DNA of 36,195 nt from an uncultured Candidatus Saccharibacteria bacterium (lineage in GTDB: Bacteria > Patescibacteriota > Minisyncoccia > Sungbacterales > SURF-37). Position 1 is the first letter of the stretch, and each line of letters starts with the position of its first letter. The translations under genes were made by a program, and so were the position numbers. The notes beneath the pieces are model-generated. The model was not told where the DNA came from, did not search any database, and saw only the letters and a program-made list of their open reading frames with translations. This document shows, in pieces, positions 11,388 through 35,000 of this stretch. The stretch covers positions 1 to 36,195 of the forward strand of contig CAYIKH010000003.1 in assembly GCA_964363965.1 (NCBI GenBank). Direction: 5' to 3'.

Positions 11388-11486
11388 TATATGGCTTTTT
11401 TAGGCGGCTCTTAATTTAATACAGAAATCAACCGGGATCAACGATAGAAATTCAAACAGCCGCTGATGCGGCAAGGGAGGCGGCAA

Positions 11487-12452
11487 ATGGGCAGGGTTCC
11501 GACGGTTGATGAGGTTAGGGCGCATCTCAATGCGCGCGGTCTGTTGAGACTCGTGAACGCGAGTGTGGAGCTCGTGGCCGCGCGGAATCATCTCGTATTT
11601 CGCGTGGAGAAAGCCGGGCAGGTTTTCTGCCTCCGCATGATCAACCCGGAGAGCTACCGGCGGCACGAGTGGATCACGATGGCTGAAGAGTATGCGCTCC
11701 TGCGGGCCATCGAACCCATTGGCCTGGGACCGCAGGCGTACTACCTCGACAAGCACTTCGAACCACCGTTCCTGATTCAGGAGTTCGTCCGAGCGGCGTG
11801 CTTCAACGACTTGAAGCCGCTCGCCGAGGAACACCTCACGGCCGCGGCGCGGGCCATCGCCATACTGAACGCGATGGACATCTCTCCTGCGCACTTCCCC
11901 TTCATGCGGAAGTACGTGCGGAAGGACTATGGGGGGAGCGGCCGCGTCTGGTATTTCCGGCTCTTTGACTCGCTCCGGCGTTTGCCACGGCGGGATGTTC
12001 TCCGGTGGGCCTTGCGGATTCTTCCGCTCATCGGGCGGACCATGGGGTTGCTCTCCCGTACCGCGCCGCTCCTGGGATCCGAGTTCTCCTTCCACTTCGA
12101 TGGCGCTCACTGTGGGAATACCTACTGGCGGGACGGGAGGGTACTCTTCCTCGACTGGCAAAAGGTGAGCTGGCGGAATGACCCGAGCTTCACGCTCGTC
12201 CGTTTCGCCACGTCAGCTGGCGAGGGGGGTATCGTGCCGGAGAGCGTCTGGCAGACGCTCATCGCGGCCTACACCGAAGTGCGGCCGCTTCCCGACTTCG
12301 GCGAGCTCGCTTGGGTGCGGTTTGTCGAGCGCCAAGTCGCGGATCTCGTGTGGGTTCTTTGGGATCATGCACGACGGCAAGATTCGCGGCCGGTCGAGCA
12401 AGGTACGAGCGTCGTACCGCGATACGCGGAAGTGCGGCGGATGCTCCGATAA
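11487..12452 (+). CDS. Aminoglycoside-phosphotransferase / choline-kinase-like (APH fold) kinase
   Basis: AGGGAGG at 11474-11480 lies 6 nt upstream of the ATG at 11487. Catalytic-loop-like HFDGAHCGN followed by LFLDWQ (metal-binding Asp context). Visibly more GC-rich than the flanking GT genes. Confidence 0.7.
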   Translation: MGRVPTVDEVRAHLNARGLLRLVNASVELVAARNHLVFRVEKAGQVFCLRMINPESYRRHEWITMAEEYALLRAIEPIGLGPQAYYLDKHFEPPFLIQEFVRAACFNDLKPLAEEHLTAAARAIAILNAMDISPAHFPFMRKYVRKDYGGSGRVWYFRLFDSLRRLPRRDVLRWALRILPLIGRTMGLLSRTAPLLGSEFSFHFDGAHCGNTYWRDGRVLFLDWQKVSWRNDPSFTLVRFATSAGEGGIVPESVWQTLIAAYTEVRPLPDFGELAWVRFVERQVADLVWVLWDHARRQDSRPVEQGTSVVPRYAEVRRMLR

Positions 12453-13203: not shown

Positions 13204-13231
13204 TAATGCGAGGCAGAGATGCCTCGCATTA
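13204..13231 (+). promoter_or_regulatory. Perfect 12-bp hairpin with GAGA tetraloop sequestering the SD and start codon of the downstream gene
   Basis: taatgcgaggca (13204-13215), gaga, tgcctcgcatta (13220-13231). The GAGG (13210-13213) and the ATG (13219-13221) lie inside it. The upstream stop TAA (13201-13203) abuts it. Confidence 0.75.
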
Positions 13232-14979
13232 ATGTTTGGGCAAAAATACTCCTGCGTGAACATTGGCCAGCACTGATTCTGGCGGTTCTGGTGGGTTTTA
13301 ATTTAGTTTTGCCGGCGCTTACCGCCAAGATCCGCTATGGTATTCCATTTGATAATCCGGCCAACATTCCGGTGGCGGACGAATTTTTTTATTTTGCGCG
13401 AGTACGCGAGGTCATTGACGGCCATCCCACACTAGGCAACCCCTATCTTTGGGAACATAAGTCCAAGCCGCCCTCCCCCGTGTTTCTCGGCGAATACATG
13501 GTGGCTCTTCCAATTATGGCTTGGCAGGAGCTAAGCGGAGAGACCCAACCGCGGGTCGTGGCTTGGGGGGTTTTTTACGATTTCTTCTTCCCGGTGCTCA
13601 TCACCATTCTTGTCTATGCCTGTTTAATTGCAATCACGCGGAGCAGATGGCTAAGTTTGTTGGCGGCAGTGTTGCTTCTCTGGGGATTGTTTCCAAGCGA
13701 ATTTATCCGCCTAGTTAGCCCGCAGTTTAATTTCCTTTTTTGGCTGAGCCTGTTTTTCTTGAGTTATCTTGTAATTCGGTCAAGCAGCGATTCACGACAA
13801 CGGTGGGTGTTGATATCAGCCGCGGCTCTAAACTTCGGAGCACTTTTTTACCTCTACACCTACTACTGGACGTTTTATCTTGCTTTTTTTGTCATCTTCG
13901 CGGCGCTGGCCGTGTGGAGAGGCGAGCGTGCCGCAGTGATCAACGCCGGCGCGATAGTTACCGGCGGCCTTCTCGTTGCCATTCCATATTTTCTCGTAAT
14001 GCTTCGTGCCGTTCGGTTGCCCGAATACGCCGAAACCCTCCGCCGAATCGGCATGATTGACTCGCACTTCCCTTCGGGAATTGCTATTGTCATTCCGGGA
14101 TTTCTGATTCTTGCTGTTATCTTGTGGCTCCTCCGGCGCCGCGTTATTGAGTGGAATGGCGAGACAGTCTTTTTTACCAGCGGTGTTCTGGCTGCCATTT
14201 TGAGCGTCAACCAGCACGTAATAACCGGGAAAAATCTCGAATTCTCAAGCCATTATTACCTGCTTTCGATCTTTTGGTTTACGTTCACCTCGGCCTACCT
14301 ACTGCGACGAATCGTGGAGCGTCCGTTCATCCCGCGGCACCTTGTTAAGCTCGGCGTTCTTGCCGTTACGGCCGCCATTGTCCTACCCAATCTCTATGCC
14401 TTTACCTCAAGGTTTGTCACCATGGCGCGGCCGGTGACATCTTTTGAGCGGGCTATGCCTCTTTTTAACTGGATTGACCACTCGACAACCAAGGATGATG
14501 TCGTAATGTTTATACCGGCGTCACTTTCGGGCGCCATACCGATTTACACCTCAGCCAATGTCTATTTTTCAAACGGCGCGCGGCTCTATTTTGTGTCCGA
14601 TGAGGAGCTGATTGACCGCTTCATTGTGAATCATTTTTTCACTAAAATTGACGAGGATTTGATTAGGCGAAATCAACGGGCTTTGGCCGGAGTGTATGAT
14701 ATTGATGTTGCCGGCCATGCCAAACAGGGAAACAAGTTGCGCCGTCTTCTTGGACTCAAGCCTAAGGCCGTCGAACCTTTCCCGGTATCATTGCCCGTGC
14801 GAGTGAGAGAGCGCGAAAAAGAACTCCGGGCCATGGGGTTTGAGCCTGCGCTCAAACGCTTCCGTATTGACTATATTGTTTGGGACCGTTTTGCCGAGCC
14901 GACTGCTCCATTGGCCACACTGCTGTCTCTGACCAAGGTCGCGGAAGTAAGTGATTTCGTAGTATTAGGCGTAGATTAA
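13219..14979 (+). CDS. Polytopic membrane protein, candidate GT-C-fold glycosyltransferase or glycan polymerase
   Basis: About 11-13 hydrophobic segments over 400 aa plus a ~190-aa soluble C-terminal domain. An Asp-Glu motif (PVADEFFYFARV) sits in the first extracytoplasmic loop after TM1, as in ArnT/PMT-type GT-C enzymes. Confidence 0.5.
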   Translation: MPRINVWAKILLREHWPALILAVLVGFNLVLPALTAKIRYGIPFDNPANIPVADEFFYFARVREVIDGHPTLGNPYLWEHKSKPPSPVFLGEYMVALPIMAWQELSGETQPRVVAWGVFYDFFFPVLITILVYACLIAITRSRWLSLLAAVLLLWGLFPSEFIRLVSPQFNFLFWLSLFFLSYLVIRSSSDSRQRWVLISAAALNFGALFYLYTYYWTFYLAFFVIFAALAVWRGERAAVINAGAIVTGGLLVAIPYFLVMLRAVRLPEYAETLRRIGMIDSHFPSGIAIVIPGFLILAVILWLLRRRVIEWNGETVFFTSGVLAAILSVNQHVITGKNLEFSSHYYLLSIFWFTFTSAYLLRRIVERPFIPRHLVKLGVLAVTAAIVLPNLYAFTSRFVTMARPVTSFERAMPLFNWIDHSTTKDDVVMFIPASLSGAIPIYTSANVYFSNGARLYFVSDEELIDRFIVNHFFTKIDEDLIRRNQRALAGVYDIDVAGHAKQGNKLRRLLGLKPKAVEPFPVSLPVRVREREKELRAMGFEPALKRFRIDYIVWDRFAEPTAPLATLLSLTKVAEVSDFVVLGVD

Positions 14980-18028: not shown

Positions 18029-19768
18029 TTGAGTATGAGTGTACTACGAAGACCCATCTTCTTGATTCTGTTTGTTGCCATAATCTTGCGGCTTTGGGGG
18101 ATTGGTTATGCTTTGCCCCAGTTTTTTGTAAATGACGAGCGGGCCAATATCTACGGGGCACTGAAGATGCTTGAGCTTAGAACCCTTGTTCCGGCCTGGC
18201 ATGAAGAAGAATTCCGTAAAGTCCTTTATTATTCGCCCCTGCCCTCGTATTTCTATCTGGTGACGCTAACACCGGTGATTGGCGTACATTATCTTATCTC
18301 CGACGCCGCTGACTTGGCCGAATACAAAAACCGGCTGGCGATTGATTCTGGTTTTATCTTCCTTGCCGCGCGGATCCTGGTGGCTCTGATCGGCGTGGCG
18401 AATATCTATGTCATCTATCTTTTCAGCCGCAAGCTTTTCCAGAGCGAACGCGCCGGCCTCCTAGCGGCGGTGTTTCTTAGCCTTTCTTTCTTTCACGTTC
18501 AGCTTTCTCATGTCACCCGTCACTGGTTGATTGCGACGTTCCTTATATATCTTGCCTGGCTTGCCGTGCTTGGTATCTACCGTACTGGGGCGCTGAGGTA
18601 TTATTTGGGGGCTGGAATAGCGGCTGGCTTGGGCGTTGGGACAAATTCGGCTTCGGCCGTGGCCATGGTGCCGTTGACATTGGCTCATATTTTGCGCGAC
18701 GGCAGCGCGTCTTTTATCCGACGTCTTTTTGGCCGACGATTGATTATTTCGCTCGCGGTCTTCGCGTTCCTGGCCGCGATCCTGATCGCCCTTTACCCCT
18801 ACGGCTTTACCCAAGGCGAAGTCGGTCCAGCCGGAACCGGATTTTTCCTTGGCGGCAAATGGAGAGCATTGGCAGCAAAAAGTTTTTCCGGCTGGCTAGC
18901 CTTTCTTTGGGAGTACTTTAAGTTGCTCCTGCGCTATGAGTGGCCTATTTTCATTACCGCTTTAGTCGGAGGTATCTTGTTTTTGCGTCGGGACTGGCGT
19001 TGGGTAGTAATCACTACCGCCTTTGTTGCGGTCTACCTTACGCTTCTTTATCTCTTTTTCGTCCGCATACCCCGGGGAATGATTTTTATCCTGCCCGGAC
19101 TTGCGGCTTTTGCCGGCTACGGGTTGGATCGTCTTATTCTCTGGTGCCAGAATCGTTTTCGTCCCGCCTTGGTGAGTATATTTTTGATCTTTGGATTTTG
19201 CTTTTTAATTTTCTTTGCTTGGCCTCTGGCTGTTGTGCTCCGTTATGATTATCTCTTGAGCCGCGATGACACCCGAATTCTTGCCAAGAACTGGATTGAG
19301 CGCGAGATCTCTCCGGGTAGCAAGATTCTCACTTATCTTCCCACCCTCCGTCTTAACAACACCCCAGAAGGAGTTCGCCAGTTGGATGAGATTGATTCCT
19401 CGGCTCTGCGTGCTTCTGATCGCGCAATATTAGCTTTGGGCAAGGCCCCATCTCCGGCGTACGCCATACTAAATCTTCATTTCCTCACTTCCGACATTCC
19501 GCTCCGGTCACTTTTGGATCCGGCTGCATTTCGAGCTATGGGCTATCGTTATCTCGCAGTTGAGTATCTTTACCCGGATCAACGCGATCTTGACCCGCAG
19601 GCCCGCTCCCTTGCGTCGCAGGGCCGGCGCGTCGCGCGTTTCGACCAATTTGGCGCAAAGACATTCGAGTATGCCCTAGACATTCGCGGAGAGGTGGATA
19701 CGGTTAGACCCGAGCATCTGTTTTTCATCGATCGTTTTGGGCCGATCGTGGAGATCTATGAACTATAA
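18029..19768 (+). CDS. GT-C glycosyltransferase of the ArnT/PMT (GT39/GT83-like, PMT_2) type
   Basis: Multi-TM N-terminal ~400 aa with NDE in the first loop (FFVNDERANIYGALKM), plus a soluble C-terminal domain. TTG at 18029; the first ATG is at 18035. Confidence 0.8.
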   Translation: MSMSVLRRPIFLILFVAIILRLWGIGYALPQFFVNDERANIYGALKMLELRTLVPAWHEEEFRKVLYYSPLPSYFYLVTLTPVIGVHYLISDAADLAEYKNRLAIDSGFIFLAARILVALIGVANIYVIYLFSRKLFQSERAGLLAAVFLSLSFFHVQLSHVTRHWLIATFLIYLAWLAVLGIYRTGALRYYLGAGIAAGLGVGTNSASAVAMVPLTLAHILRDGSASFIRRLFGRRLIISLAVFAFLAAILIALYPYGFTQGEVGPAGTGFFLGGKWRALAAKSFSGWLAFLWEYFKLLLRYEWPIFITALVGGILFLRRDWRWVVITTAFVAVYLTLLYLFFVRIPRGMIFILPGLAAFAGYGLDRLILWCQNRFRPALVSIFLIFGFCFLIFFAWPLAVVLRYDYLLSRDDTRILAKNWIEREISPGSKILTYLPTLRLNNTPEGVRQLDEIDSSALRASDRAILALGKAPSPAYAILNLHFLTSDIPLRSLLDPAAFRAMGYRYLAVEYLYPDQRDLDPQARSLASQGRRVARFDQFGAKTFEYALDIRGEVDTVRPEHLFFIDRFGPIVEIYEL

Positions 19769-22574: not shown

Positions 22575-23867
22575 ATGATTCATGACATATGCATCATTGG
22601 CGGGGCCGGGCATGTCGGACTGCCGCTAGGCGTGGCTTTTGCCAACCAAAGAGTACGGACTGTCCTTTTTGATCGGAACCGGGAGGCTCTTACTAAGATC
22701 CGTTCAGGCGTTTTCCCCTTCAAAGAGAAAAATGGCGAGGCCGAACTCCGGCGTGCCCTCCGGAAAGGGACGCTCGCCACCTCTGAGTCGCCGTCGGTCA
22801 TTGCCAAGAGCGATTTTGTGCTTTTGGTGGTAGGCACGCCGGTGGATGAGTATCTAAACCCGGATATCCACGGCATTGCCCGCACCATCGAGAGTTATTT
22901 CCCATATTTTCGGAACGGGCAAATTTTAATTTTGCGGAGCACGGTCTATCCCGGCACAGCGGAGCGGATTCAAAAATACTTTCAGGAGAATAAAAAACGC
23001 GTCCAGGTCGCCTTTTGCCCGGAGCGCATTGCTCAGGGTCGGGCCCTCGAGGAGATTAGGAAGCTGCCGCAGATTGTATCCGCTTTTGACCCCAAGGCTT
23101 TAGCCCGAGTGGCCGCGCTATTTAAGAAAGTGACGACAAGTGAGATCATTATTGCCAAACCCATGGAAGCGGAACTGGCCAAGCTTTTTTCCAATGCCTG
23201 GCGCTACATTAAATTCGCCGTGGCCAACCAGTTCTACATGATCGCCGCAGATCATCATCTCAATTACCATAAGATCTATGAGGCGATGATGGAGGGTTAC
23301 CCCCGCAATAAAGATCTGCCTCCTCCTGGGTTTGCCGCCGGACCTTGTCTCTTAAAAGACACCATGCAGCTTTCGGCATTCCACTCCAATAACTTTTTCC
23401 TTGGGCACGCAGCCATGCTTGTAAACGAGGGCTTGCCAAACTTCGTAATCAAAAAGTTGAAGCGTTCCTCACCGCCTGGGCCGTCAATACCAGTTAAGCT
23501 GCCCAAGCCAATGGCCCGTTTGGCCAGCGCAAATACTCTGGAAACACTCCTGCATGGAGCGCTCGGCGGGTATGATCTTAAGGCCAAGACCATAGGCATC
23601 TTAGGCATGGCTTTTAAGGCTGATTCCGATGATCCCCGTGATTCTCTATCCTACAAATTGAAAAAAATCGCCGAGGCCGAAGCCAAGGCCGTGCTCTGCC
23701 ATGATGTCCATATTAAGGATCCCTCGTTCGCGCCGCTTGAAACCGTGCTCCGAGAATCGGACATCGTCATTCTGGCCGCGCCGCACAGGGAATATCGCAA
23801 AATTGATCCGCGAAGGTTTCCGCAGAAACACTTTGTTGATATTTGGAATCTTTGGCCACGAAAATGA
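22575..23867 (+). CDS. Nucleotide-sugar dehydrogenase (UDP-glucose/GDP-mannose dehydrogenase family)
   Basis: N-terminal IGGAGHVGLPLGVAFA Rossmann motif. Catalytic Cys context GFAAGPCLLKDT. C-terminal GMAFKADSDDPRDS motif. Confidence 0.85.
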   Translation: MIHDICIIGGAGHVGLPLGVAFANQRVRTVLFDRNREALTKIRSGVFPFKEKNGEAELRRALRKGTLATSESPSVIAKSDFVLLVVGTPVDEYLNPDIHGIARTIESYFPYFRNGQILILRSTVYPGTAERIQKYFQENKKRVQVAFCPERIAQGRALEEIRKLPQIVSAFDPKALARVAALFKKVTTSEIIIAKPMEAELAKLFSNAWRYIKFAVANQFYMIAADHHLNYHKIYEAMMEGYPRNKDLPPPGFAAGPCLLKDTMQLSAFHSNNFFLGHAAMLVNEGLPNFVIKKLKRSSPPGPSIPVKLPKPMARLASANTLETLLHGALGGYDLKAKTIGILGMAFKADSDDPRDSLSYKLKKIAEAEAKAVLCHDVHIKDPSFAPLETVLRESDIVILAAPHREYRKIDPRRFPQKHFVDIWNLWPRK

Positions 23868-24859
23868 AGATTTTAATCACCGGCGCGGCCGGGTTCATTG
23901 GCTATCATCTGGCGCGCCATCTTCTTCATGATCCTAAAGTTGAGCTTGTATTTGTTGATAGCCTCCAACGTAGCAGGATGGATGAAGAGTTTTCGGCGTT
24001 GGTCAAAGAGCCGCAGGTAAGATTTCTCAACTTTGATCTTACCGATCCTGCGGTTTACTCCCAGCTTGGCCGTGGGTACGATCACGTCTATCACCTCGCG
24101 GCCATCAACGGCACCAAGCTCTTTTACGAGATGCCGCAGGAGGTGCTGCGCATAAACACTTTGTCGCTTATCTATATGCTGGAGTGGTTCAAGCGTGAGA
24201 ACCGCCAGGGTAAGTTTTGCTTCACATCCTCTAACGAGGCCTATGCCGGAGCGCTTGCGGCCTTTGGTAAGCTCCCGATTCCGACGCCGGAAAACGTGCC
24301 GCTCGTTATCGAGGATCCTTATAACGCGCGCTGGTCCTATGCCGCATCAAAGCTGGTGGGCGAGCTATTCGTGGTTCATTACGCGGCCAAGCATAATTTC
24401 CGCGCCCTGATTGTCCGGCCGCATAACTTCTACGGCCCACGCGCCGGCTATGACCACGTGATCCCCGAGTTTTCGTTTCGCATTTCAAAGCGCATCGACC
24501 CTTTCCCTATCTGCGGTGCAGATGACACTAGAACCTTTTGCTACATCGGGGATGCTGTGCTGGCAATGCAGTTGTTAATGGATTCGTCTGCGACTGACGG
24601 CCAGCCGATCGAAACCGTTCACATCGGCGATGTCGAGGAGATCACCATGGTTGATCTGGCCGAGAAACTTTTTGCCATTGCCGTCTGGCGGCCGCAGGAG
24701 CTTGACATTAAAAATTCACCCGAAGGAAGCGTGAAGCGGCGGAAGGCCGACATTACTAAGATACAAACTCTTGTCGGCTGGAAGCCAGAAGTCCCGCTTG
24801 AGGGTGGACTAAGGCAGACTTATGAGTGGTATCTGGCTCATCCTAGAGTAGAAATATGA
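23864..24859 (+). CDS. NAD-dependent sugar epimerase/dehydratase (extended SDR)
   Basis: MKILITGAAGFIGYHL (GxxGxxG) and YAASK (YxxxK). The ATG at 23864 overlaps the upstream TGA (ATGA). Confidence 0.85.
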   Translation: MKILITGAAGFIGYHLARHLLHDPKVELVFVDSLQRSRMDEEFSALVKEPQVRFLNFDLTDPAVYSQLGRGYDHVYHLAAINGTKLFYEMPQEVLRINTLSLIYMLEWFKRENRQGKFCFTSSNEAYAGALAAFGKLPIPTPENVPLVIEDPYNARWSYAASKLVGELFVVHYAAKHNFRALIVRPHNFYGPRAGYDHVIPEFSFRISKRIDPFPICGADDTRTFCYIGDAVLAMQLLMDSSATDGQPIETVHIGDVEEITMVDLAEKLFAIAVWRPQELDIKNSPEGSVKRRKADITKIQTLVGWKPEVPLEGGLRQTYEWYLAHPRVEI

Positions 24860-26049
24860 AAGTCTCGATTGGCGCACCAATTTACGATAAACGAGAGATA
24901 CAAGCAGTCTTGAGGGCACTTCGCGAAAAAAGACTGTCGCAGGGAAAGTATGTTAAGGCTTTTGAGCGGGCTTGGGTGAGGTACATTGGTTGTCGTTTTA
25001 GCATTGGCGTAAATTCAGGATCTTCAGCCAATCTCGTGGCTATTCAGGCCATGAAAGAACGTTACGGCTGGAAAGTTGGGGATACGGTCATTGCCCCGGC
25101 TCTTACCTTTGCCACGGCGGTCATGCCAGTTTTACAGGCCGGATTAAGGCCTCTTTTTGCTGATGTGGATTATCGCGGCAATATGACCGCCAAAAGCGTT
25201 TTGGCTGCTTTTAGGAAACATCGAGGTCCTAAAGTGCGGGGCTTGGTACTGGTTCATTCCCTGGGCGTGCCCTGCCTGGATGCTCCAAAAATCCAAAAGT
25301 TTTGCCGTGAAAAAGGCATTAGGATTTTGGAGGATTGTTGTGAATCGCATGGCGCCAAGGTTCAGGGGAAGATGGTCGGCTCTTTCGGCGATGTTTCCAC
25401 CACCTCGTTTTATGTTGCCCATAACATGACCACTGGCGAGGGCGGTATGATCACAACTGATGACCCGAAACTTGATGAAATTTGCCGATCGCTTCGCGAA
25501 TTTGGTCGGCGCATTGATCCGAAAAGCCCGCGCTATGTTCGTTTGGCTTCCGGACCCTCATACGACATCCGTTACGCCTTTGATCGCCTTGGATACAATG
25601 TTCGCATGACTGATATTGCGGCCAGCCTCGGTTTAGTTCAATTATCGAAACTTGAAAAGATGAATGCCAAGCGCAGGCAGATTGCTGGTTGGTACAAAAA
25701 AGGCTTTTTAAATCTTATCTCTCAACGCCTGATTTCCTTGCCTGATGAGCCGGCTGGCACCAAAAACACTTACTACACTCTGCTCATCACTTTTTTGAAA
25801 ATGCCGCCTCGTTTGCCGAGCATCGAAAAGATAGCTCTAAGATTGGAGAAGGCCGGCATAGAGACAAGACCTTTTATGGCTGGAAATCTATTGCGTCAGC
25901 GCGCTTTTAGCCGATGGGGTAAGCCGCAGTTATATCCAATGGCCGAATTTTTGCACCGGAGAAGCCTTTCTGTCGGATGTCATCCGCTGGTCACCGAGGC
26001 CGGCGTGAGTTATGTATGCGAGAATATCAATCGGCTTTACGCCATATGA
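24856..26049 (+). CDS. DegT/DnrJ/EryC1-family PLP/PMP enzyme of the ColD/E1 3-dehydratase subtype
   Basis: NSGSSANL motif. The Schiff-base Lys position reads His (SFYVAHNMTTGEGG; His189, codon 25420-25422). ATGA overlap with the upstream gene. Confidence 0.8.
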   Translation: MKVSIGAPIYDKREIQAVLRALREKRLSQGKYVKAFERAWVRYIGCRFSIGVNSGSSANLVAIQAMKERYGWKVGDTVIAPALTFATAVMPVLQAGLRPLFADVDYRGNMTAKSVLAAFRKHRGPKVRGLVLVHSLGVPCLDAPKIQKFCREKGIRILEDCCESHGAKVQGKMVGSFGDVSTTSFYVAHNMTTGEGGMITTDDPKLDEICRSLREFGRRIDPKSPRYVRLASGPSYDIRYAFDRLGYNVRMTDIAASLGLVQLSKLEKMNAKRRQIAGWYKKGFLNLISQRLISLPDEPAGTKNTYYTLLITFLKMPPRLPSIEKIALRLEKAGIETRPFMAGNLLRQRAFSRWGKPQLYPMAEFLHRRSLSVGCHPLVTEAGVSYVCENINRLYAI

Positions 26050-26238: not shown

Positions 26239-27504
26239 ATGAAAATCGCCATGATTATCCGCCGTCTGGATTTGAAGGGCGGATCGCAGCGGCTCTTCCT
26301 CTATATCGCCAATCAGTACCGGCGGCGGGGGCATAAGGTCAAAATCTACGCCTTTTTTTATTCCAAGGAGAACTGCTTCCCCGACCTTCTTGAAGGATTT
26401 GAGGTTGTGGCGCTCGATCAGAAGTTTGCGGCTGATCCGGAATTTGAGACCCTGCGTAAAATTCCAATCCTCCGGTATTTGGCAACGCTTTTGACCACGT
26501 GGCACGAGACGGAAACCGCAAAAGCCCTCGCGAATCTCATGGCGCCGGATGCCGATATCTTAAATCCGCATGAACGCGTCGCGCATCGCACCGCCTACTT
26601 TTACCGAAAATATATGAGGGATGTGCCTTCGGTCTGGAACACGAATGACACGCATTCAATGCGCCATCTCGTAGACAAGCTTGCGGCAGTTGATCCAGCT
26701 CACTACGCCCAACCCTGGTGGAAGATGCTTATCTACCTCCTCCGCGATTGGTACGAGAACTGGCGTTACATTTCTAGCCAGGAGGCAATTGTGGTCGTGG
26801 ATAAATTCAACCAGCGCGCAACGCGAGATTACTTCGGCCGGCACGCCTTTGTGAATCGCAACGGGCCGATCTTGAGTCAATTTATCTATAAACCTCGGCA
26901 GGCCCCTTCAAAACGCGTCCAGCTTCTGACAAGCGGCATCTTTTTTCCGCACCGCCGTTTTGAGGATGCCATACGCGCCACAAAGTTGCTCGCCGATCAT
27001 GGCTATGTTCCTACGCTTCGCATCATTGGCGATCCGGCCGGAGATCCGGAGTATGCCAGCCGGCTCTACAAACTCGTTGACGGGATGAATGTTAAAAAGA
27101 GCGTTGTTTTTCTCGGAAAAATTAGCGAAGAGGAACTGATCCGGCGCTACCATGAAGCCGACATTTTTCTCTACCCGCACACCATGCAGTCAAACGGCCT
27201 GGCCCCAACCGAGGCCATGGCCTGCGGTTTGCCTCCGGTTGTTTCCCGCGGAGCAGGGATTCACGAGATTATTACCGACCTGGAGACCGGCCTTCTTGTT
27301 GACCCCATGAAACCGGAAGCTATTACCCGCGCCATAAAGGAGCTCGTTGAGAACCCAGGCCTTTATATCAAAATCAGCCGGCAGGCGGCTGACTTTGTGC
27401 GCAATACCTTTACTTGGGAGCGCTACGGCGAACGACAGCTCGCCATCCTCGAGCATGTGCTCCGCGGCACACCGATCCCGAATGTTCCGGATCGGCGCGA
27501 ATAG
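26239..27504 (+). CDS. GT4 glycosyltransferase
   Basis: MKIAMIIRRLDLKGGSQR N-terminus. C-terminal QSNGLAPTEAMACGLPPVVS (Q-X7-E variant). Confidence 0.85.
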   Translation: MKIAMIIRRLDLKGGSQRLFLYIANQYRRRGHKVKIYAFFYSKENCFPDLLEGFEVVALDQKFAADPEFETLRKIPILRYLATLLTTWHETETAKALANLMAPDADILNPHERVAHRTAYFYRKYMRDVPSVWNTNDTHSMRHLVDKLAAVDPAHYAQPWWKMLIYLLRDWYENWRYISSQEAIVVVDKFNQRATRDYFGRHAFVNRNGPILSQFIYKPRQAPSKRVQLLTSGIFFPHRRFEDAIRATKLLADHGYVPTLRIIGDPAGDPEYASRLYKLVDGMNVKKSVVFLGKISEEELIRRYHEADIFLYPHTMQSNGLAPTEAMACGLPPVVSRGAGIHEIITDLETGLLVDPMKPEAITRAIKELVENPGLYIKISRQAADFVRNTFTWERYGERQLAILEHVLRGTPIPNVPDRRE

Positions 27505-28404: not shown

Positions 28405-28409
28405 ATTTG

Positions 28410-28433
28410 AGCTGTTTTAAAATTGAAACAGCT
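28410..28433. promoter_or_regulatory. Palindrome in the divergent promoter region (operator-like)
   Basis: agctgttt (28410-28417) - 8 nt - aaacagct (28426-28433), 6 nt from the minus-strand start codon and ~50 nt from the plus-strand start. Confidence 0.3.
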
Positions 28434-28480
28434 GGATCAGGGGAATCGTATTATATATTGGGGTTTTTGACCAGTTTAGA

Positions 28481-29809
28481 ATGAAAACCATATTCATTAC
28501 CAGCTTCCACGTCCTGATTTCGCGGAATATTCTGGCCGCTCCGCTTCTCGGCGAGCTTCTTAATCAGGGTAATGTTCGGGCGGTATTGCTTGTTCCCGAA
28601 CGCAAGCGCCAATTTTTTGAGCAGGAGTTTGGCCGACCGGGGGTGATCATTGAAGGAGTACCGCGCATGCTTAACCGGCGCGATGCTTTTTTACGCTATT
28701 TGGCTCTTGCTTCGTTAAACACAAAATCGCTTGCCATCAAGCGCCGGACCGAGATGCGGGGGATGGGCAGTTGGCTGGTTAAGTTCATCGGCAACCGGCC
28801 GCGGGCAAGAAGCATTATCCGGCGGCTGGATAACTGGCTTACTCCCCGCGAACGTTTCGGTTCATTGCTTGACCGCTACCAGCCAAGGCTGATTTTCTCG
28901 ACGGATGTTCAGAACGAAAATGATATTCGGTTCATTCGCGAAGCTAAGGATCGGGGTATTACGGTTGCCGGTATGGTCAGGTCGTGGGACAATCTCACTG
29001 CCAAGGGTTTGATTCGGGCGATACCCGATATCCTTATTGTCAACAACGAAATCATTAAGCGCGAAGCAGTAGAACTTCATGGCATTCCGGAATCAAGGAT
29101 TCGCGTAGTCGGCATTCCGCACTATGACCGCTACACCGGGCCGGCTCATTCCCGGGAGGAGTTTTCGCGGCAAGCCGGCCTTGATCCGGCCAAGCCATTC
29201 GTGCTTTACGCGCCTACCGGAGACCGCTACCTTGCCGAAAACCAGGTTGATCAGGAAATTATAAAAATAATCGCCCCCTCTTTACCCGCCAGTCACCAGC
29301 TTCTGGTGCGATTACCTCCGGCAGATAGCGTGAATCTTAAAGATTTTTCAACTCCGGCCAATGTTTTTTTTGACCGCCCTGGCCGACAGCTCGCGCGAGA
29401 TCCGAATCTTTTCCGGCTGAATGAACTTACCCGCGAGGATGATGATCATCTCCGCGATACTCTGGCTTTTTGTGATCTGGTTATTGCCGGCCCCTCAACC
29501 ATAATCATTGACGCCGCGGTTTTTGATAAGCCGGTGATTTTAATAGGTTTTGACGGCGCCAAAACTACTCCTTACTATCAAAGCATCCGCCGCTATTATG
29601 ACTATGACCATTTCCAGCCGGTATTAAAAAACAGGGGAGTGAGATTGGCAAAAAGCGTGGGCGAACTAAAAGAATGGCTGGCAAAGTATATTAAAGAGCC
29701 GGCACTGGATCAGGCCGGCCGCGCAAAAATTCGGGAGGAGCAATGCCTCAAGCTTGACGGACAGTCCAGCCAGCGTCTGGCCGAGACGCTTTTGAGCTTT
29801 CTGGCATAA
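28481..29809 (+). CDS. Uncharacterised GT-B-like protein, distantly TagF-like (paralogue 1)
   Basis: The motif order GIPHYDRY ... PFVLYAPTGDRY ... CDLVIAGPSTIIIDAAVFDKPVIL ... YYDYD parallels the G-x-P-R-x-D ... LYAPT-x-R ... ITDYSS ... KP layout of CDP-glycerol glycerophosphotransferases. The key residues differ. Confidence 0.55.
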   Translation: MKTIFITSFHVLISRNILAAPLLGELLNQGNVRAVLLVPERKRQFFEQEFGRPGVIIEGVPRMLNRRDAFLRYLALASLNTKSLAIKRRTEMRGMGSWLVKFIGNRPRARSIIRRLDNWLTPRERFGSLLDRYQPRLIFSTDVQNENDIRFIREAKDRGITVAGMVRSWDNLTAKGLIRAIPDILIVNNEIIKREAVELHGIPESRIRVVGIPHYDRYTGPAHSREEFSRQAGLDPAKPFVLYAPTGDRYLAENQVDQEIIKIIAPSLPASHQLLVRLPPADSVNLKDFSTPANVFFDRPGRQLARDPNLFRLNELTREDDDHLRDTLAFCDLVIAGPSTIIIDAAVFDKPVILIGFDGAKTTPYYQSIRRYYDYDHFQPVLKNRGVRLAKSVGELKEWLAKYIKEPALDQAGRAKIREEQCLKLDGQSSQRLAETLLSFLA

Positions 29810-29811
29810 AT

Positions 29812-31206
29812 ATGAAAACCATTTTTATCACCAGTTTCCATCCGCTCATTTCTCGGAATATCATCTCCACCGAGTTTCTTTCGGATTTGACGGCAATGGG
29901 AAACGAGGTCGTGGTTCTCGTGCCGAGTTACAAGCGTTCGTTCTTCGAAGAAACCTATCGCCGTTCCGGCATCCGCTTCGAGGGCATTGATACCGGGCCG
30001 GGGGCGCGTTCCCGCTGGGTGAAAATCGCAAAGCGAGTTGCCGAAGCTTTGCCGGATACCCGGCGCGCGGCCATTGGGCGCAGGCGCACACTCACCGGGA
30101 AACGGAAACACGCCTTCATCTACTGGCTCTTCTATGCCCCGCTGGGGCTCGCCGGAAAATCGCATCGTGCGGTTCGATGGTTCCGGTGGCTCGATTTCTT
30201 TCTTGCGCCGGCTGGGCGTTTCTACTCGATCCTGGACCGCTACCGGCCGGCATTGGTGTTTTCAACCGACATTCAGAACGAACACGACGTCGGGCTTATG
30301 CAGGATGCCCGGCGCCGGGGTTACCCGATTCTCGGCATGGTGAGGTCGTGGGACAACCTCACCACGCGGGCATTGCGGTTTGTACCTCCGCATATTGTTG
30401 TCCACAACGAAATCATAAAAGCCGAGGCCGTGCGTTACCACGGCATTACGCCGGAGGAGGTGAGTGTGGTCGGGATCCCGCATTACGATCGTTACCTCCG
30501 GGGACCAACGCTCGGCCGGGCGGAGTTTTTCGAGAGCATCGGCGCGCGTCTCGGTACCAAACTGATCCTCTATTTTCCGATTTGCGACTATCGCTTGGAG
30601 AGGAATATCGTGGATCCCTACGTCATCGGCCTTTTAGGCAAAACCGACGGCATCACCACGCTGGTTCGTTTTCCACCTGCGGCATCGGTGGATCTTGGGG
30701 ATTTCGTCAAACCTCGCACAGTGGTCTATGATACGCCCGGCCGCGAGTTTCAATCAGGACGCGTGGATGATCGGGAGCTCACGCCCGCGGATGATGAACG
30801 GCTGGTGAATGCTCTTGTCTGGTGTGACGTCGCAGTTGCCGGCCCGTCGACGGCGGTCATTGATGCGGCACTTTTCAACAAGCCGGTCATGCTCATTGAC
30901 CTGTATCCGCGCGATCTTCCGGACGAAGGGCGGATTTACGAGTACGGAGCGGAGCATATCGCGAATATTCTTGCGGCAGGCGGCGCGCAACTGGTCAGGA
31001 GCGAGCGGGAATTCTTCGCGGCACTCAACCGGTATCTGGAACATCCCGAGGCCGATGCGCTCGGGCGCGAGTGTATTGTTCGGGAACAGTGCTGGCAATG
31101 TGACGGGAAAGCCTGCGAACGGCTGGCCCGCCTTGTCCATGCGTATGCGAGTTCCGGGCATCGCGCCCTCGGTGATCAGAAAACCCGGAATTCTCCGGGA
31201 AGGTAG
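29812..31206 (+). CDS. Uncharacterised GT-B-like protein, distantly TagF-like (paralogue 2)
   Basis: Same N-terminus as paralogue 1 (MKTIFITSFHPLISRNI). Shared MVRSWDNLT, NEIIK, VVGIPHYDRY and AGPST motifs. It starts 2 nt after the upstream stop. Confidence 0.55.
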   Translation: MKTIFITSFHPLISRNIISTEFLSDLTAMGNEVVVLVPSYKRSFFEETYRRSGIRFEGIDTGPGARSRWVKIAKRVAEALPDTRRAAIGRRRTLTGKRKHAFIYWLFYAPLGLAGKSHRAVRWFRWLDFFLAPAGRFYSILDRYRPALVFSTDIQNEHDVGLMQDARRRGYPILGMVRSWDNLTTRALRFVPPHIVVHNEIIKAEAVRYHGITPEEVSVVGIPHYDRYLRGPTLGRAEFFESIGARLGTKLILYFPICDYRLERNIVDPYVIGLLGKTDGITTLVRFPPAASVDLGDFVKPRTVVYDTPGREFQSGRVDDRELTPADDERLVNALVWCDVAVAGPSTAVIDAALFNKPVMLIDLYPRDLPDEGRIYEYGAEHIANILAAGGAQLVRSEREFFAALNRYLEHPEADALGRECIVREQCWQCDGKACERLARLVHAYASSGHRALGDQKTRNSPGR

Positions 31207-31229: not shown

Positions 31230-33281
31230 ATGACAGCATTTGAACGGCGACTCCGATCACTGCTCAAACCGGATACGCGCCGGCTAATTTTGCGTCGCAT
31301 CAGGAATCGCGCCGCCATGCGCTGGCGTCATGTTGTCTCGCCCCATCCCGCCCTGATTCATGCCGGAGCACGGCGAATCGGCCCGGGGGAGCCTGTGTTC
31401 GTTATCGCCGAAATCGGCGTGAACCATAACGGGAGCGTGGAGCGGGCCAAGCAGTTGATTGACGCGGCGCATGCGGCCGGGGCTGACGCGGTGAAATTTC
31501 AGATTCGGCATCTTCCCGCGACCTATCGGGCCGACGTCCTCGAGCACCCCGAGCGCGAGGAGCAGTCATTCCAATATTTGATTCCACTCTTGAAGGAATT
31601 TGAACTTTCGCGGGATGCGTACCGCGAGCTTTTCCGCTATGCCCGCGCGCTCGGCATACTCGCCTTCGCCTCGGCCTTCGATGAACCGACGGTTGATTTT
31701 GTCTCCGAATTCCAGCCGCCCCTGTACAAAGTCGCGTCAGCCGACCTTATTCATTTCCCCCTGATCGAGCGCCTCCTCGAGGAGCGAACGCCGCTCCTGC
31801 TCTCGACCGGAATGTCCACACTGGATGAAGTTGATGAAACCGCGGCGTTCCTCGATCACCGCCGCGCCTCCTTCGCGCTCCTTCATTGCCAGTCAACGTA
31901 TCCGGCGTCGGTTGATACGCTGAATCTTGCGATGATTCCGAAACTGCGGCATCGCTATGGCGTTCCCGTTGGCTATTCGGGGCACGAGCTCGGCATCACG
32001 AACACGATTGCTGCGGTGGCCCTTGGCGCCTCGGTCATCGAGCGCCACATCACACTCGACCGAACGCTCGCTGGTCCGGATCACTCATCTTCGCTCGAGC
32101 CCGCCGTGTTCGCTCTGCTGGTGAAAGGAATCCGCGAGTACGAGATCGCCTACGGCGTTCCGGTGAGGCGTATTTCGCGGGGTGAAGTCGGTAATCGCCT
32201 GACGCTCCGCAAGAGCTTGGTTGCGGCCTCCGATATTCCGGCCGGTGCGGTGATTACGCGCGATCGAGTGACGGCGAAGAGTCCGGGGAACGGCATTTCG
32301 CCCCAGCGTTTGTATGAACTCGTGGGCCGCAGGGCTTCTCGCGCCATCACGGCCGATGAGATGTTCACCGAATCGGATCTCGGCCGCGTGGAGAAGCCGC
32401 CGGCAACGCTTCCCGCGTTCTCATCCTCGTGGGGGCTGAAGGCGCGATTCCTCGAGCTTGACCGGCTTTCGCAGATTCGCCCCCGACCGAAGTTTTTTGA
32501 ATTTCATTGCTCGTACGCGGACCTGGATGTTGGGCTCGATCCGGACACGCGCTACCCGCAAGGGCTTGTCGTGCACGCGCCGGAATACTTCGGGAGGAAG
32601 GTTGTGGATCTCGCGGCTGCCGATCCGGCACTGTGGGAGGATTCCATTCGCGTCATGCAGCGTACGATCAACAAGACCCGCGAAATCGCGGGAAGCTTCG
32701 TGGGAACGCCCAAAGTCGTGATTCATGTGGGCGGTATGTCCCTTGAACCGAACGCGGATCATGCCGCTTTACTTAAGCGCGCCGAGGACGCGTTTCGGCG
32801 GCTCGATACCGCGGGCGTTGAAATTTTGCCTGAAAACCTTCCTCCATTCGGCTGGTTTTTTTCCGGATTGTGGCACTGTAATGTCTTCGGGGACGCCGAT
32901 GAGATGGTGAGGTTCTGTAGGCACCTCGGATACCGCATGTGCTTGGATCTTTCGCATGCCTGGCTCTACACGACGCACCATGGCCTTGATTACCTTGAAT
33001 ACCTGGAAAAGACCGCGCCCATCGCTGGTCACCTCCACATTGCCGACGGTCGCGGTTCGCACAAGGAGGGGCTTCAGATTGGCGAAGGCGATGTTCCGTT
33101 TGGAGAGGCATTCCGGGTGCTCGCAAAACACTTGCCGCGCGATCGCGAAGTCACCTGGGTTCCTGAAGTATGGCAGGGTCAGCTTGATGACTATCGTCAT
33201 TTCCGGATTGCGCTTGCGAAACTTGCGGCCTATCCGTTTCTGATGAACGATAGGGGGCAGGAACCCGTCCACGAAGTATGA
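31230..33281 (+). CDS. NeuB-type ulosonic (sialic) acid synthase with SAF domain, fused to a xylose-isomerase-like TIM-barrel domain
   Basis: NeuB motifs IAEIGVNHNGS, KFQ, STGMS, LLHCQSTYP, GYSGHELG, ERHITLDR..GPDHSSSLEP. SAF-like RKSLVAASDIPAGAVITRD. The C-terminal ~290 aa carry VVHAPEYF, VIHVGG, PENLPP, DLSHAW and HLHIADGRG (sugar-phosphate isomerase/epimerase TIM-barrel pattern). ATG at 31230 (TTG at 31221). Confidence 0.8.
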   Translation: MTAFERRLRSLLKPDTRRLILRRIRNRAAMRWRHVVSPHPALIHAGARRIGPGEPVFVIAEIGVNHNGSVERAKQLIDAAHAAGADAVKFQIRHLPATYRADVLEHPEREEQSFQYLIPLLKEFELSRDAYRELFRYARALGILAFASAFDEPTVDFVSEFQPPLYKVASADLIHFPLIERLLEERTPLLLSTGMSTLDEVDETAAFLDHRRASFALLHCQSTYPASVDTLNLAMIPKLRHRYGVPVGYSGHELGITNTIAAVALGASVIERHITLDRTLAGPDHSSSLEPAVFALLVKGIREYEIAYGVPVRRISRGEVGNRLTLRKSLVAASDIPAGAVITRDRVTAKSPGNGISPQRLYELVGRRASRAITADEMFTESDLGRVEKPPATLPAFSSSWGLKARFLELDRLSQIRPRPKFFEFHCSYADLDVGLDPDTRYPQGLVVHAPEYFGRKVVDLAAADPALWEDSIRVMQRTINKTREIAGSFVGTPKVVIHVGGMSLEPNADHAALLKRAEDAFRRLDTAGVEILPENLPPFGWFFSGLWHCNVFGDADEMVRFCRHLGYRMCLDLSHAWLYTTHHGLDYLEYLEKTAPIAGHLHIADGRGSHKEGLQIGEGDVPFGEAFRVLAKHLPRDREVTWVPEVWQGQLDDYRHFRIALAKLAAYPFLMNDRGQEPVHEV

Positions 33282-34021
33282 ATACGTCCGCTCCCAGAAA
33301 ATCGGTGAATATCCTCGGCATTATTCCCGCGCGCGGCGGTTCAAAATCCATTCCCCGGAAAAACTTGGCGCCGGTGCTCGGCAAGCCGCTGGTTTCCTAT
33401 TCAATCCGTTCGGCCCAGCAGTCGAAGCTCTTGGATGCGTTTCTTGTAAGTACGGATGACGCCGAAATCGCCGAGGTAGCGCGATCCTGTGGGGCCGACG
33501 TGCCGTTCCTGCGGCCGAAGGAGTTTTCACGGGATGATTCTCTGGACATTGAATTCCTGCGTCATGCTCTTGATTGGCTTGAGGCTGAACGCGGCTGGAA
33601 GCCCGAGATTGTCGTGAACCTGCGCCCCACCGGGCCGCTTCGCACCGGTGAGGATATTGACCGCGTTATTCAGCTGATGCTCGATACCGGCTGCGATTCA
33701 GCGCGCACCGTATCAATTCCCGCGCATAACCCCTTCAAGATGTGGCGAGTGGATGCGGCGAGCGCCAGAATGGATCCGCTCATTCCCACCGAACATTTTG
33801 CCGTGCTCGGCACGGACGTGCCGCGTCAGCTCCTCCCCCAGAACGTCTATTGGCAAAACGGCCTCGTGGACGCGACGCGGGCGAAGTTCATCCGCGAGGG
33901 CAGGATCTACGGTCCGGATATCCGCGGCGTTGTCGTTGACCTCCGCAAGGCCATTGACATTGATGATCCCGAGGACCTGGACCGTGTCCAAAAGCGGCTG
34001 GAGGAATTCGGCCTCGCTTGA
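33278..34021 (+). CDS. Acylneuraminate cytidylyltransferase-like CMP-ulosonic-acid synthetase
   Basis: GIIPARGGSKSIPRKNL...STDD...FLRP signature of the NeuA/CTP_transf_3 family. ATGA overlap with the upstream gene. Confidence 0.85.
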   Translation: MNTSAPRKSVNILGIIPARGGSKSIPRKNLAPVLGKPLVSYSIRSAQQSKLLDAFLVSTDDAEIAEVARSCGADVPFLRPKEFSRDDSLDIEFLRHALDWLEAERGWKPEIVVNLRPTGPLRTGEDIDRVIQLMLDTGCDSARTVSIPAHNPFKMWRVDAASARMDPLIPTEHFAVLGTDVPRQLLPQNVYWQNGLVDATRAKFIREGRIYGPDIRGVVVDLRKAIDIDDPEDLDRVQKRLEEFGLA

Positions 34022-34025
34022 TGTC

Positions 34026-35000
34026 ATGAATATCCTCATTGTCGGGACGGGATCCATCGGGCGCCGTCATTTCCGGAACCTTCATGCGCTTGGCTTTCGG
34101 AAACTTGCCGTTGTTCGATCCAAGCATCGCATGGACGGGCCCCAGCGCGAGTTTTTTGCAAAATACCGGCCGCGGGTGTTCTATGACCTCGCCACCGCCC
34201 TAGCTGAAAGATCCGATGCCATGGTTGTCTCGAATCCGACGAGTTTGCACGTCCGAACGGCTCGCGTCGCGATTCGCGCCGGCGCCCATGTTTTCATCGA
34301 AAAGCCCATCTCTCACTCGCGATCCGGTGTTGCCGAGCTGCTTCGCGAAGCGCGGCGGCGAAAACTTATCGTATACATGGGTTATCATTTTCGTCACCAT
34401 CCGCTCCTGAAAGCGGCTAAGCGCCTGCTCGATGCAGGCAAGCTCGGCAAACTCCATAGCGCTCGATTCATCACCGGCGAATATTTGCCGGGCTGGCATC
34501 CCTGGGAGGACTACCGCAAGGGCTATGCCGCCAGGCGCGATCTTGGCGGGGGAGTGGTGCTCACCCAGAGCCATGACCTTGATCTCATCTCCTGGTTTTT
34601 CGGGAAGCCCCGATTGGTTGCCGCTGACGTGCGCTCAAGCGGCGCGCTTGGCATTCCCGTGGATGATATCGCCGTGATTACTTTCGCCACCCCGCGCTGT
34701 CCGGTCGTTGTTTCGCATCTCGATTATCTCTCGCGGCCGCCGGTGAAAGAATTTACCATCAGCGGATCGCGGGGGCGCCTCGAATGGGACTATCAGGGGA
34801 ATTTTTTGCGCCTTGTCTTAGCGAACGGCAAAGCGCGCACCATGAAACTACCGACTGGCTTTAAGCGGAACGACATGTACGTTGCGGAAATCAAGGATTT
34901 CATCCGCTGCATTCGGCAGGGGAGGAAGCCGGAAACGGACGGGCAAGCTGGCGCAGCCGTGCTCGAAATAGCTCTCGGCGCAATGGACGCAAGAAGGTAA
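34026..35000 (+). CDS. Gfo/Idh/MocA-family NAD(P)-dependent oxidoreductase
   Basis: MNILIVGTGSIGRRH Rossmann N-terminus and the HVFIEKP motif. The start is set at the ATG at 34026, 4 nt after the upstream stop. The 33753 extension overlaps the NeuA-like gene in another frame. Confidence 0.85.
   Translation: MNILIVGTGSIGRRHFRNLHALGFRKLAVVRSKHRMDGPQREFFAKYRPRVFYDLATALAERSDAMVVSNPTSLHVRTARVAIRAGAHVFIEKPISHSRSGVAELLREARRRKLIVYMGYHFRHHPLLKAAKRLLDAGKLGKLHSARFITGEYLPGWHPWEDYRKGYAARRDLGGGVVLTQSHDLDLISWFFGKPRLVAADVRSSGALGIPVDDIAVITFATPRCPVVVSHLDYLSRPPVKEFTISGSRGRLEWDYQGNFLRLVLANGKARTMKLPTGFKRNDMYVAEIKDFIRCIRQGRKPETDGQAGAAVLEIALGAMDARR

Follow-up and report, generated by a model that had tools for sequence, protein, structure and literature searches.

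TagF-like GT-B paralogues beside nonulosonic acid genes in a Patescibacteria genome: candidate CMP-sugar-dependent transferases

Few transferases are described for pseudaminic acid (Pse), legionaminic acid (Leg) and their relatives, and those of Pse/Leg type keep founding CAZy families (for example GT118 in 2024 and GT140 in 2026, cited in PMC12887879). The closest precedent for the genes treated here, a tandem pair heading a nonulosonic (sialic-acid-like) acid (NulO) operon of an uncultured Patescibacteria bacterium, is the protein O-glycosylation system of Tannerella forsythia. Deletion of the TagB-domain proteins Tanf_01245 or TFUB4_00887, whose homologue in strain 92A2 is BFO_1060, abolishes the terminal Pse or Leg derivative of the O-glycan (PMC5420450). 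Sialyltransferases and retaining transferases of 3-deoxy-D-manno-oct-2-ulosonic acid (Kdo) have in common a (K/R)xHP motif that binds cytidine monophosphate (CMP): the K/R contacts cytosine, Pro stacks on it, His and a Ser-Ser pair bind the phosphate and an acidic residue five positions past the first Ser binds the ribose; the H227A variant of one such enzyme, KrkA, is inactive (PMC12887879). We found nothing specific in the literature on the present family or on NulOs in Patescibacteria.

The pair, whose products we term A and B, lies in a 36,195-nucleotide stretch of DNA (the window; contig CAYIKH010000003.1) from a 651-kb, 98%-complete genome (G000). We put it at somewhat better than even that A and B are cytidine-nucleotide-dependent GT-B transferases, taking as donor the CMP-NulO made by the adjacent genes, using a membrane glycan as acceptor and catalysing distinct steps; attachment of NulO to the cell surface is their most likely role. 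Judged by sequence, they are anciently diverged paralogues within a large, Patescibacteria-centred branch of the TagB/TagF superfamily, with the BFO_1060-type Pse/Leg transferase family of T. forsythia as nearest curated relative.

Paralogy, superfamily and fold

A and B (442 and 464 residues) are encoded by adjacent open reading frames (ORFs) with a 2-nt gap (TAA-AT-ATG), exactly where the initial annotation of this DNA had placed them. They align over their full length with 41% identity (BLASTP, E 4e-104), which excludes a chance match and establishes them as true paralogues. All the sequence blocks listed as shared in that annotation—MKTIFITSFH.LISRNI, FSTD[VI]QNE, MVRSWDNLT, NEIIK, VVGIPHYDRY and AGPST..IDAA.F.KPV—recur in the pairwise alignment, and most are nearly invariant in an alignment of 51 family members.

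Both proteins pass the gathering score (22.1 bits) of Pfam PF04464, Glyphos_transf (Table 1), with mostly the C-terminal half matched; 50 of the 51 members match at E ≤ 0.01. The NCBIfam model NF046086 (BFO_1060 family glycosyltransferase) is matched by all 51, covers the N-domain too and is the top NCBIfam match in every clade tested, with scores from 24 to 92 bits (maximum 91.6, a C-type member; clades below) that all fall under its cut-off of 200. Pfam models for sialyltransferases (GT38/42/52/80), Capsule_synth (PF05159) and Epimerase_2 gave no match to A or B at E ≤ 1.

For A, AlphaFold2 run on the family alignment gives a confident model (pLDDT 93.7, pTM 0.92) with a two-domain GT-B fold. 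Foldseek comparison with the PDB returned, at probability 1.00, MshA, UDP-N-acetylglucosamine (UDP-GlcNAc) 2-epimerases and NeuC, MGD1, TagF and MurG, with TM scores of 0.45–0.61; because scores are similar across generic GT-B enzymes, the fold is confirmed and the subfamily is not discriminated. There are no sialyltransferase or Kdo-transferase structures among the top 50 matches. Residues 61–134 form a helical insert in the N-domain, strongly basic in composition (18 K+R vs 5 D+E), whose net charge over the 51 homologues runs from +4 to +15 (median +11). No transmembrane helix is predicted in A, and by analogy with TagF, MurG and MGD1 the insert may be a peripheral membrane-binding surface.

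The gathering scores and the confident model bear out the view of A and B as TagF-like GT-B proteins. The initial annotation had further proposed them as an undescribed family that transfers or polymerises a CMP-activated acid. Their candidacy for transfer draws support from fold, motifs and co-occurrence (below), whereas 'undescribed' does not fully hold: such proteins are already filed under Glyphos_transf and named 'CDP-glycerol glycerophosphotransferase family protein' (CDP, cytidine diphosphate), NF046086 is the best curated match of all 51, and TagB-like NulO transfer has its T. forsythia precedent (PMC5420450).

With clustering at 50% identity, an exhaustive profile search yields 1,991 clusters at a threshold of E ≤ 1e-30 and 5,419 when this is relaxed to 1e-10. 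The source genome holds three more members on contig C1, C, D and E (Table 1). In a FastTree phylogeny of 180 family ORFs, five clades are well supported: a1 (A-type, 46 tips), a2 (B-type, 17 tips, support 0.999), b (D-type, 38 tips), c (C-type, 28 tips) and d (E-type, 18 tips). A and B have separate orthologues elsewhere and thus stem from an ancient, retained duplication, not a recent tandem copy.

Motifs and the putative CMP site

Profile alignments to TarL and Cps3D, and to two classical Glyphos_transf proteins (hhalign) of G010, a further genome in the phylum, show a colinear motif order. GIPHYD of A corresponds to G-x-P-R-x-D of the classical TagF type, AP.GDR to APT.R, R277-L-P279-P280 to [KR]-x-H-[PY] and G-P-S339-T340...D344...K350-P351 to D-Y-S-S...[DE]...[KR]-P. 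These alignments back the parallel to CDP-glycerol glycerophosphotransferases that had been drawn from block order, and the departures in signature residues were likewise read correctly: GPST stands for DYSS, and Pro for the HP histidine (RLPP in A, RFPP in B). The G010 proteins (353 and 215 bits) carry CWHG/IWHA, GYPRND, YAPTWR, RAHY/KQHQH and TDYSS motifs; their genes lie at L089 1396..3992 and L090 1435..2535, and one is followed by a TarI/TarJ-like CDP-ribitol synthase in one polypeptide.

Residue conservation was surveyed over 180 family sequences. W169-D170, G211, D216 and R277 are invariant across all clades (R277 in 100% of sequences), and, in four of the five clades named above, P280 is kept by 95–100% of sequences. 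Also conserved are S339-[ST]340 and D/E344, with the same five-residue spacing as in the CMP motif. Conservation of R277, P280, S339/[ST]340 and D/E344 suggests that the family has kept the cytidine site apart from its histidine. Position 279 is P, Q or Y depending on clade and His in the C-type clade only, which has R-x-H-P in 100% of its sequences together with the canonical Arg of G-x-x-R-x-D.

No histidine is invariant across the whole family. Clade a1 has nearly invariant H10, H214 and R249. We considered a histidine swap, with H214 replacing H279, and rejected it: in clade b, 81% of sequences carry Gln at 214, and His is not among the common residues at 279. The counterpart of the classical WHG motif differs by method; hhalign (local and global) and Pfam coordinates place it in the FSTDVQNE strand, and secondary-structure order and W-[HD] likeness place it at RSWDN. 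D170 and D216 are candidates for the catalytic base.

Operon, arrays and co-occurrence

A and B are the first genes of a co-directional run, A-B-NeuB fusion-CMPs-Gfo/Idh/MocA, where CMPs denotes a CMP-sugar synthetase (Table 1). The packing with a NeuB-type synthase and a CMP-sugar synthetase, part of the original case for the pair, is tight: the NeuB fusion starts 14 nt past B, and the CMPs gene overlaps the NeuB stop by 4 nt. We found no convincing terminator within the run. Upstream of A, a promoter-like TTGACC-16-CATATT at 28467-28494 overlaps the start codon, and sigma-70-like sites number 7 against 3.4 expected, which is not significant by itself.

All five family members in the genome, whose genes occupy about 1% of it, are adjacent to a NeuB + CMPs cassette or about 2.3 kb or less from one. 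The genome has three NeuB and three CTP_transf_3 genes in total, and family members adjoin or neighbour each.

Co-occurrence extends across the phylum. We searched 301 evenly drawn genomes with the family profile at E ≤ 1e-20, and counts from this sample come from related genomes that are not independent of each other. The family occurs in 21 genomes and NeuB in 46; NeuB is present in 20 of 21 family-positive genomes and in 26 of 280 family-negative ones, the NeuB-free exception (G089) being 92% complete. The 21 genomes represent eight taxonomic families, seven of them with NeuB. Complete full-length matches (G000, G270, G125, G138 and G095) have NeuB at 0.15–7.6 kb on the same strand in five of five cases, and shorter relatives of about 395 residues in one taxonomic family (f22) have it 1 kb away in three of four genomes.

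A scan of GTDB species genomes gave 76 family loci, 36 of them with full 10-kb flanks. Within 10 kb, these 36 have NeuB in 25, CMPs in 27 and NeuC in 25; at least one of the three is found in 30, and NeuB and CMPs together in 23. Over all 76 loci, 130 of 138 NeuB, CMPs or NeuC genes share the strand of the family gene, and in 19 loci such a gene lies within 100 bp. The co-occurrence with NeuB/NeuA-type genes on which the initial annotation had staked its proposal beforehand thus holds strongly, in this genome and across genomes.

Family members tend to occur in arrays, with at least two at 59 of the 76 loci. Eight or more loci show the fixed order [c].[a][b] followed by NeuC-NeuB-CMPs, and [c][b] pairs of the C-D kind recur. 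The layout of the window, DegT...[a1][a2]-NeuB-CMPs-Gfo, is repeated in L013, the a1-then-a2 order also in L014 and L019, and the NeuB-CMPs-Gfo order in L013, L025 and L060. Natural fusions join two modules (about 900 residues; P0121, P0123, P0192), an A-type module and a methyltransferase domain (P0122) or a D-type module and a polysaccharide deacetylase domain (P0243). Donor-specific clades, also considered, are not supported: each major clade adjoins several cassette types (NeuC, unk386, Gfo) without a one-to-one relation.

Table 1 Positions of the pair, its neighbours in the window and the other family members of the genome
Feature	Location	Strand	Evidence and remarks
DegT-family enzyme, best match RfbH (CDP-sugar 3-dehydrase type)	24856..26049	+	PF01041 282 bits; NF011936 250.7 bits, under cut-off
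GT4 glycosyltransferase, candidate acceptor maker	26239..27504	+	PF00534 106.8 bits
Divergent intergenic region, 76 nt, 5' of A	28405..28480	.	Weak sigma-70-like match only
Paralogue A, 442 aa, a1 (A-type) subclade	28481..29809	+	ORF; PF04464 45.5 bits, NF046086 42.9 bits; candidate CMP-NulO transferase
Paralogue B, 464 aa, a2 (B-type) subclade	29812..31206	+	ORF; PF04464 28.7 bits, NF046086 29.5 bits
NeuB + SAF NulO synthase fused to xylose-isomerase-like TIM barrel (AP_endonuc_2), 686 aa	31221..33281	+	PF03102 250.9 bits, PF08666, PF01261; TIGR03569 313.8 bits, under cut-off
CMP-sugar synthetase (CTP_transf_3), presumed donor maker	33278..34021	+	PF02348 73.4 bits; best match PseF TIGR03584 133 bits, under cut-off
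Gfo/Idh/MocA oxidoreductase, final gene of the run	34041..35000	+	PF01408, PF22725, PF02894
Paralogues C and D, overlapping tandem pair	contig C1:25448-28224 (L011 9449..12228)		NF046086 64.5 bits (C), 61.3 bits (D); directly after NeuB-unk386-CMPs
Paralogue E, single copy	contig C1:37632-38957 (L012 1552..2970)		NF046086 24.5 bits; about 2.3 kb upstream of 2-Hacid_dh-NeuB-NeuC-CMPs

Orthologues of the GT4 gene (at least 300 bits) are found in six A-type loci (L019, L014, L013, L064, L016 and L015). Elsewhere in the glycan locus of the window, ORFs at 13219-14979 (586 aa) and 11466-12452 (328 aa) have no Pfam or NCBIfam match, and one at 18029-19768 (579 aa) has a weak match to PMT_2 (GT-C) only; all three are possible candidates for polymerase, ligase or acceptor-side parts. 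NeuB matches within long frames of about 625–665 residues are common in the phylum sample (for example the matches G085:C2:19766-20479, G061:C2:91247-91960 and G008:C3:51804-52517), so the architecture of the window's gene, NeuB plus C-terminal extension, seems widespread there.

On contig C1 the cassette before C and D reads NanM-type methyltransferase-NeuB-386-aa protein-CMPs. The 386-aa protein (L011 7471..8631; C1:23470-24630) has no Pfam or NCBIfam match and has homologues at the same position in L014, L027, L037, L064 and L066; it is a conserved but uncharacterised part of one type of NulO cassette. The putative sugar O-methyltransferase of NanM type (L011 5378..6427; TIGR04371 149.9 bits, cut-off 44) lies directly upstream of a SAF-less NeuB and hints at an O-methylated NulO. 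In the wider set of loci, the family contigs L032 and L033 bear the label 'uncultured Gammaproteobacteria' in third-party bin records, where many others bear 'Candidatus Saccharibacteria'; these labels may reflect binning or naming conventions rather than true taxonomy.

Proposed function and competing explanations

From gene context and motifs we infer what A and B transfer and to what, which residues act in catalysis and how the two share the work, as follows. The C-terminal Rossmann domain would bind the CMP part of the CMP-NulO supplied by the NeuB fusion and CMPs, with R277 and P280 holding cytosine, S339/T340 the phosphate and D344 the ribose. An invariant acid of the N-domain or hinge, D170 or D216, would activate the acceptor hydroxyl, with CMP leaving; the product bond is predicted to be glycosidic, not phosphodiester. 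Docking on the membrane through the basic insert, in the absence of transmembrane helices, would make the acceptor probably a lipid-linked or membrane-proximal glycan built by neighbouring GT4/GT2 genes. The two paralogues would perform two transfer steps, either on different acceptors or linkages or as initiation and extension. Clades recurring in fixed arrays, together with the natural two-module fusions, argue that they are not redundant.

A bolder version, to which we give only a modest chance, treats the paralogue arrays (c, a and b; here a1 and a2) as an assembly line that starts with a priming module and continues with extending ones, giving a NulO-rich, anionic surface polymer or oligosaccharide. 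Such a product would be an analogue of teichoic acid with CMP-sugars in place of CDP-polyols, made at a His-free CMP site.

Several points weigh against CMP-NulO transfer by A and B. The donor is assigned from context and motifs, and the NF046086 scores of the pair (43 and 30 vs 200 bits) make its kinship to Pse/Leg transferases remote. About half of the family-positive genomes have only shorter, more distant relatives, on another contig than NeuB or, in two genomes, some 30 kb off; in the distant group of taxonomic family f36 (matches from profile position about 121–127) these are not on NeuB's contig or, in one genome, lie 29 kb from it. A C-domain histidine is required in TagF, and deposited TagF variant structures (H444N) mark His as a mutagenesis target. 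A and B have Pro279 in place of the (K/R)xHP histidine, which is essential in KrkA (PMC12887879). In Bacillus subtilis, deletion of SpsB, a TagB-domain protein of the sps Leg locus, did not abolish Leg transfer (PMC7439481). Lastly, with its RfbF-like, dehydratase-like and RfbH-like genes the organism can probably produce CDP-hexoses, which makes another cytidine donor conceivable for A and B.

Among the alternatives, an unlikely one that nevertheless survives best is that A and B are nucleotide-sugar hydrolases or hydrolysing 2-epimerases (PseG/NeuC/LegG-like) that provide a free hexose for NeuB. In the Foldseek comparison, UDP-GlcNAc 2-epimerases and NeuC are near the top, with marginally higher TM scores than TagF, and phmmer gives a weak match (E 0.03) to a UDP-sugar 2-epimerase. 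Pfam and NCBIfam scans found no NeuC or PseG gene in the NeuB module of the window, leaving the precursor step unfilled. However, PF02350 (Epimerase_2) weakly matches only one of the 51 members (E 0.0085) and TIGR03568 (NeuC) two (E 0.002), neither A nor B being matched at E ≤ 1. Arrays of three to four distinct paralogues are also common at loci that already encode NeuC, and the basic membrane-type insert, the TagF/CMP-type motifs of the C-domain and the fusions to a second module, methyltransferase or deacetylase better fit transferases.

Slightly less likely again is transfer from a CDP-activated hexose, such as a CDP-3,6-dideoxyhexose or its 1-phosphate, instead of a CMP-ulosonic acid. Contig C1 carries genes for an RfbF-like glucose-1-phosphate cytidylyltransferase (292.8 bits, under the cut-off of 300.25) and for a CDP-glucose 4,6-dehydratase-like protein, both at C1:5305-7133 (L092 1438..3269), and the window has an RfbH-like DegT gene and a short-chain dehydrogenase/reductase (SDR) gene at 23843-26049, which looks like a CDP-3,6-dideoxyhexose-type pathway divided between the two loci. 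The DegT gene lies 2.4 kb upstream of A, and DegT-like genes recur upstream of A-type orthologues (L013, L014, L019, L025 and L064). Yet the CDP-glucose genes are on another contig, whereas A and B are packed with NeuB and CMPs, and RfbF-type genes occur near the family in only 2 of the 76 loci, against NeuB/CMPs in most. No characterised dideoxyhexosyltransferase is known to be of TagF type.

Conventional TagB/TagF-type polyol-phosphate transfer, from CDP-glycerol or CDP-ribitol into a teichoic-acid-like polymer, is what the database names and the passed Glyphos_transf gathering score would suggest at face value. TarL, TarF and TarB NCBIfam models give weak matches in 8–16 of the 51 members, and searches of PDB sequences, with single sequences and with the profile, give weak matches only (TarL at E 1e-4; Cps3D). 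We consider this reading improbable. The 98%-complete genome has no match to PF01467 (TagD-type) or PF01128 (IspD/TarI-type), the WHG and HP histidines are not conserved and the family is tightly linked to NeuB and CMPs genes. Classical members are themselves rare, found at E ≤ 1e-40 in only one (G010) of 201 genomes of the phylum, where one adjoins an IspD-SDR (TarI/J-like) fusion and not NeuB.

No better placed is the idea that A and B, having lost the motif histidine, catalyse little or nothing themselves and instead assist another transferase as acceptor binders, scaffolds or regulators; although the histidine essential in KrkA (PMC12887879) is Pro in a1 and a2 and kept throughout the C-type clade, and the paralogues occur in fixed arrays and fusions, no His-bearing C-type partner adjoins A and B in their operon, the (near-)invariance of D170, D216, R277 and S339/T340 argues for a maintained active site and the H10, H214 and R249 of a1 could assume phosphate binding.

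Comparison with known systems

Sources that name proteins of the branch (about 2,000 clusters at 50% identity) at all call them 'CDP-glycerol glycerophosphotransferase' throughout. If the donor of the branch is CMP-NulO, these names misstate the donor of thousands of proteins, and the branch becomes a sizeable new source of NulO transferases for use in chemoenzymatic synthesis. Five paralogues on about 1% of a 651-kb genome, with three NulO pathways, imply a NulO-dominated surface in these host-dependent bacteria, making the question of host recognition or evasion in the candidate phyla radiation more testable. The His-less variant of (K/R)xHP is a natural experiment on the role of the motif histidine. 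An assembly line, were it real, would amount to a new CAZy-level family and a new class of envelope polymer in ultra-small episymbiotic bacteria.

Like Tanf_01245 and TFUB4_00887 of T. forsythia, A and B have a GT-B/TagB-type domain, are encoded with NulO biosynthesis genes and have a presumed CMP-NulO donor. They are not of the same family, given NF046086 scores of only 24–92 bits across the branch, and lack the HP histidine that the T. forsythia enzymes are reported to have. T. forsythia, one of the Bacteroidota, has one such gene per strain studied, whereas genomes with the Patescibacteria family have three to five divergent paralogues each, set in conserved arrays; the evidence from T. forsythia is purely genetic, from knock-outs. 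The B. subtilis protein SpsB, compared by description only, is likewise a TagB-like protein encoded beside a NulO pathway.

TagF, TagB, TarL and TagF-like capsule polymerases (PF04464; 3L7I-3L7M, 8VA1, 8QOY) share with A and B the GT-B fold and colinear motifs—G-x-P-x-x-D, AP(T)..R, [KR]-x-x-P and S-[ST]...[DE]...[KR]-P—as well as, by prediction for A and B, a cytidine-nucleotide donor with CMP as leaving group and membrane association without transmembrane helices. A and B differ in the unconserved WHG/HP histidines, the lack of a CDP-glycerol or CDP-ribitol synthase match and neighbours of NeuB/CMPs rather than TagD/TarIJ type.

CMP-dependent sialyl-, Kdo- and Pse-transferases (GT38, GT52, GT80, GT99, GT107, GT118 and GT140; PMC12887879) use the kind of donor predicted for A and B, a CMP-ulosonic acid, and share with A and B, in the same order, the R...P of the (K/R)xHP motif, an S-S/T phosphate pair and an acidic ribose ligand five residues on. 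Unlike sialyl- and Kdo-transferases, A and B have no such Pfam match at E ≤ 1 and miss the motif histidine, and unlike GT99, GT107 and GT140 their N-domain is full-size, with a basic helical insert, rather than reduced. A TagB-like NulO transferase was already known from one genetic study; what is new is a sub-cut-off, His-less branch, centred on Patescibacteria and arranged in multi-paralogue arrays.

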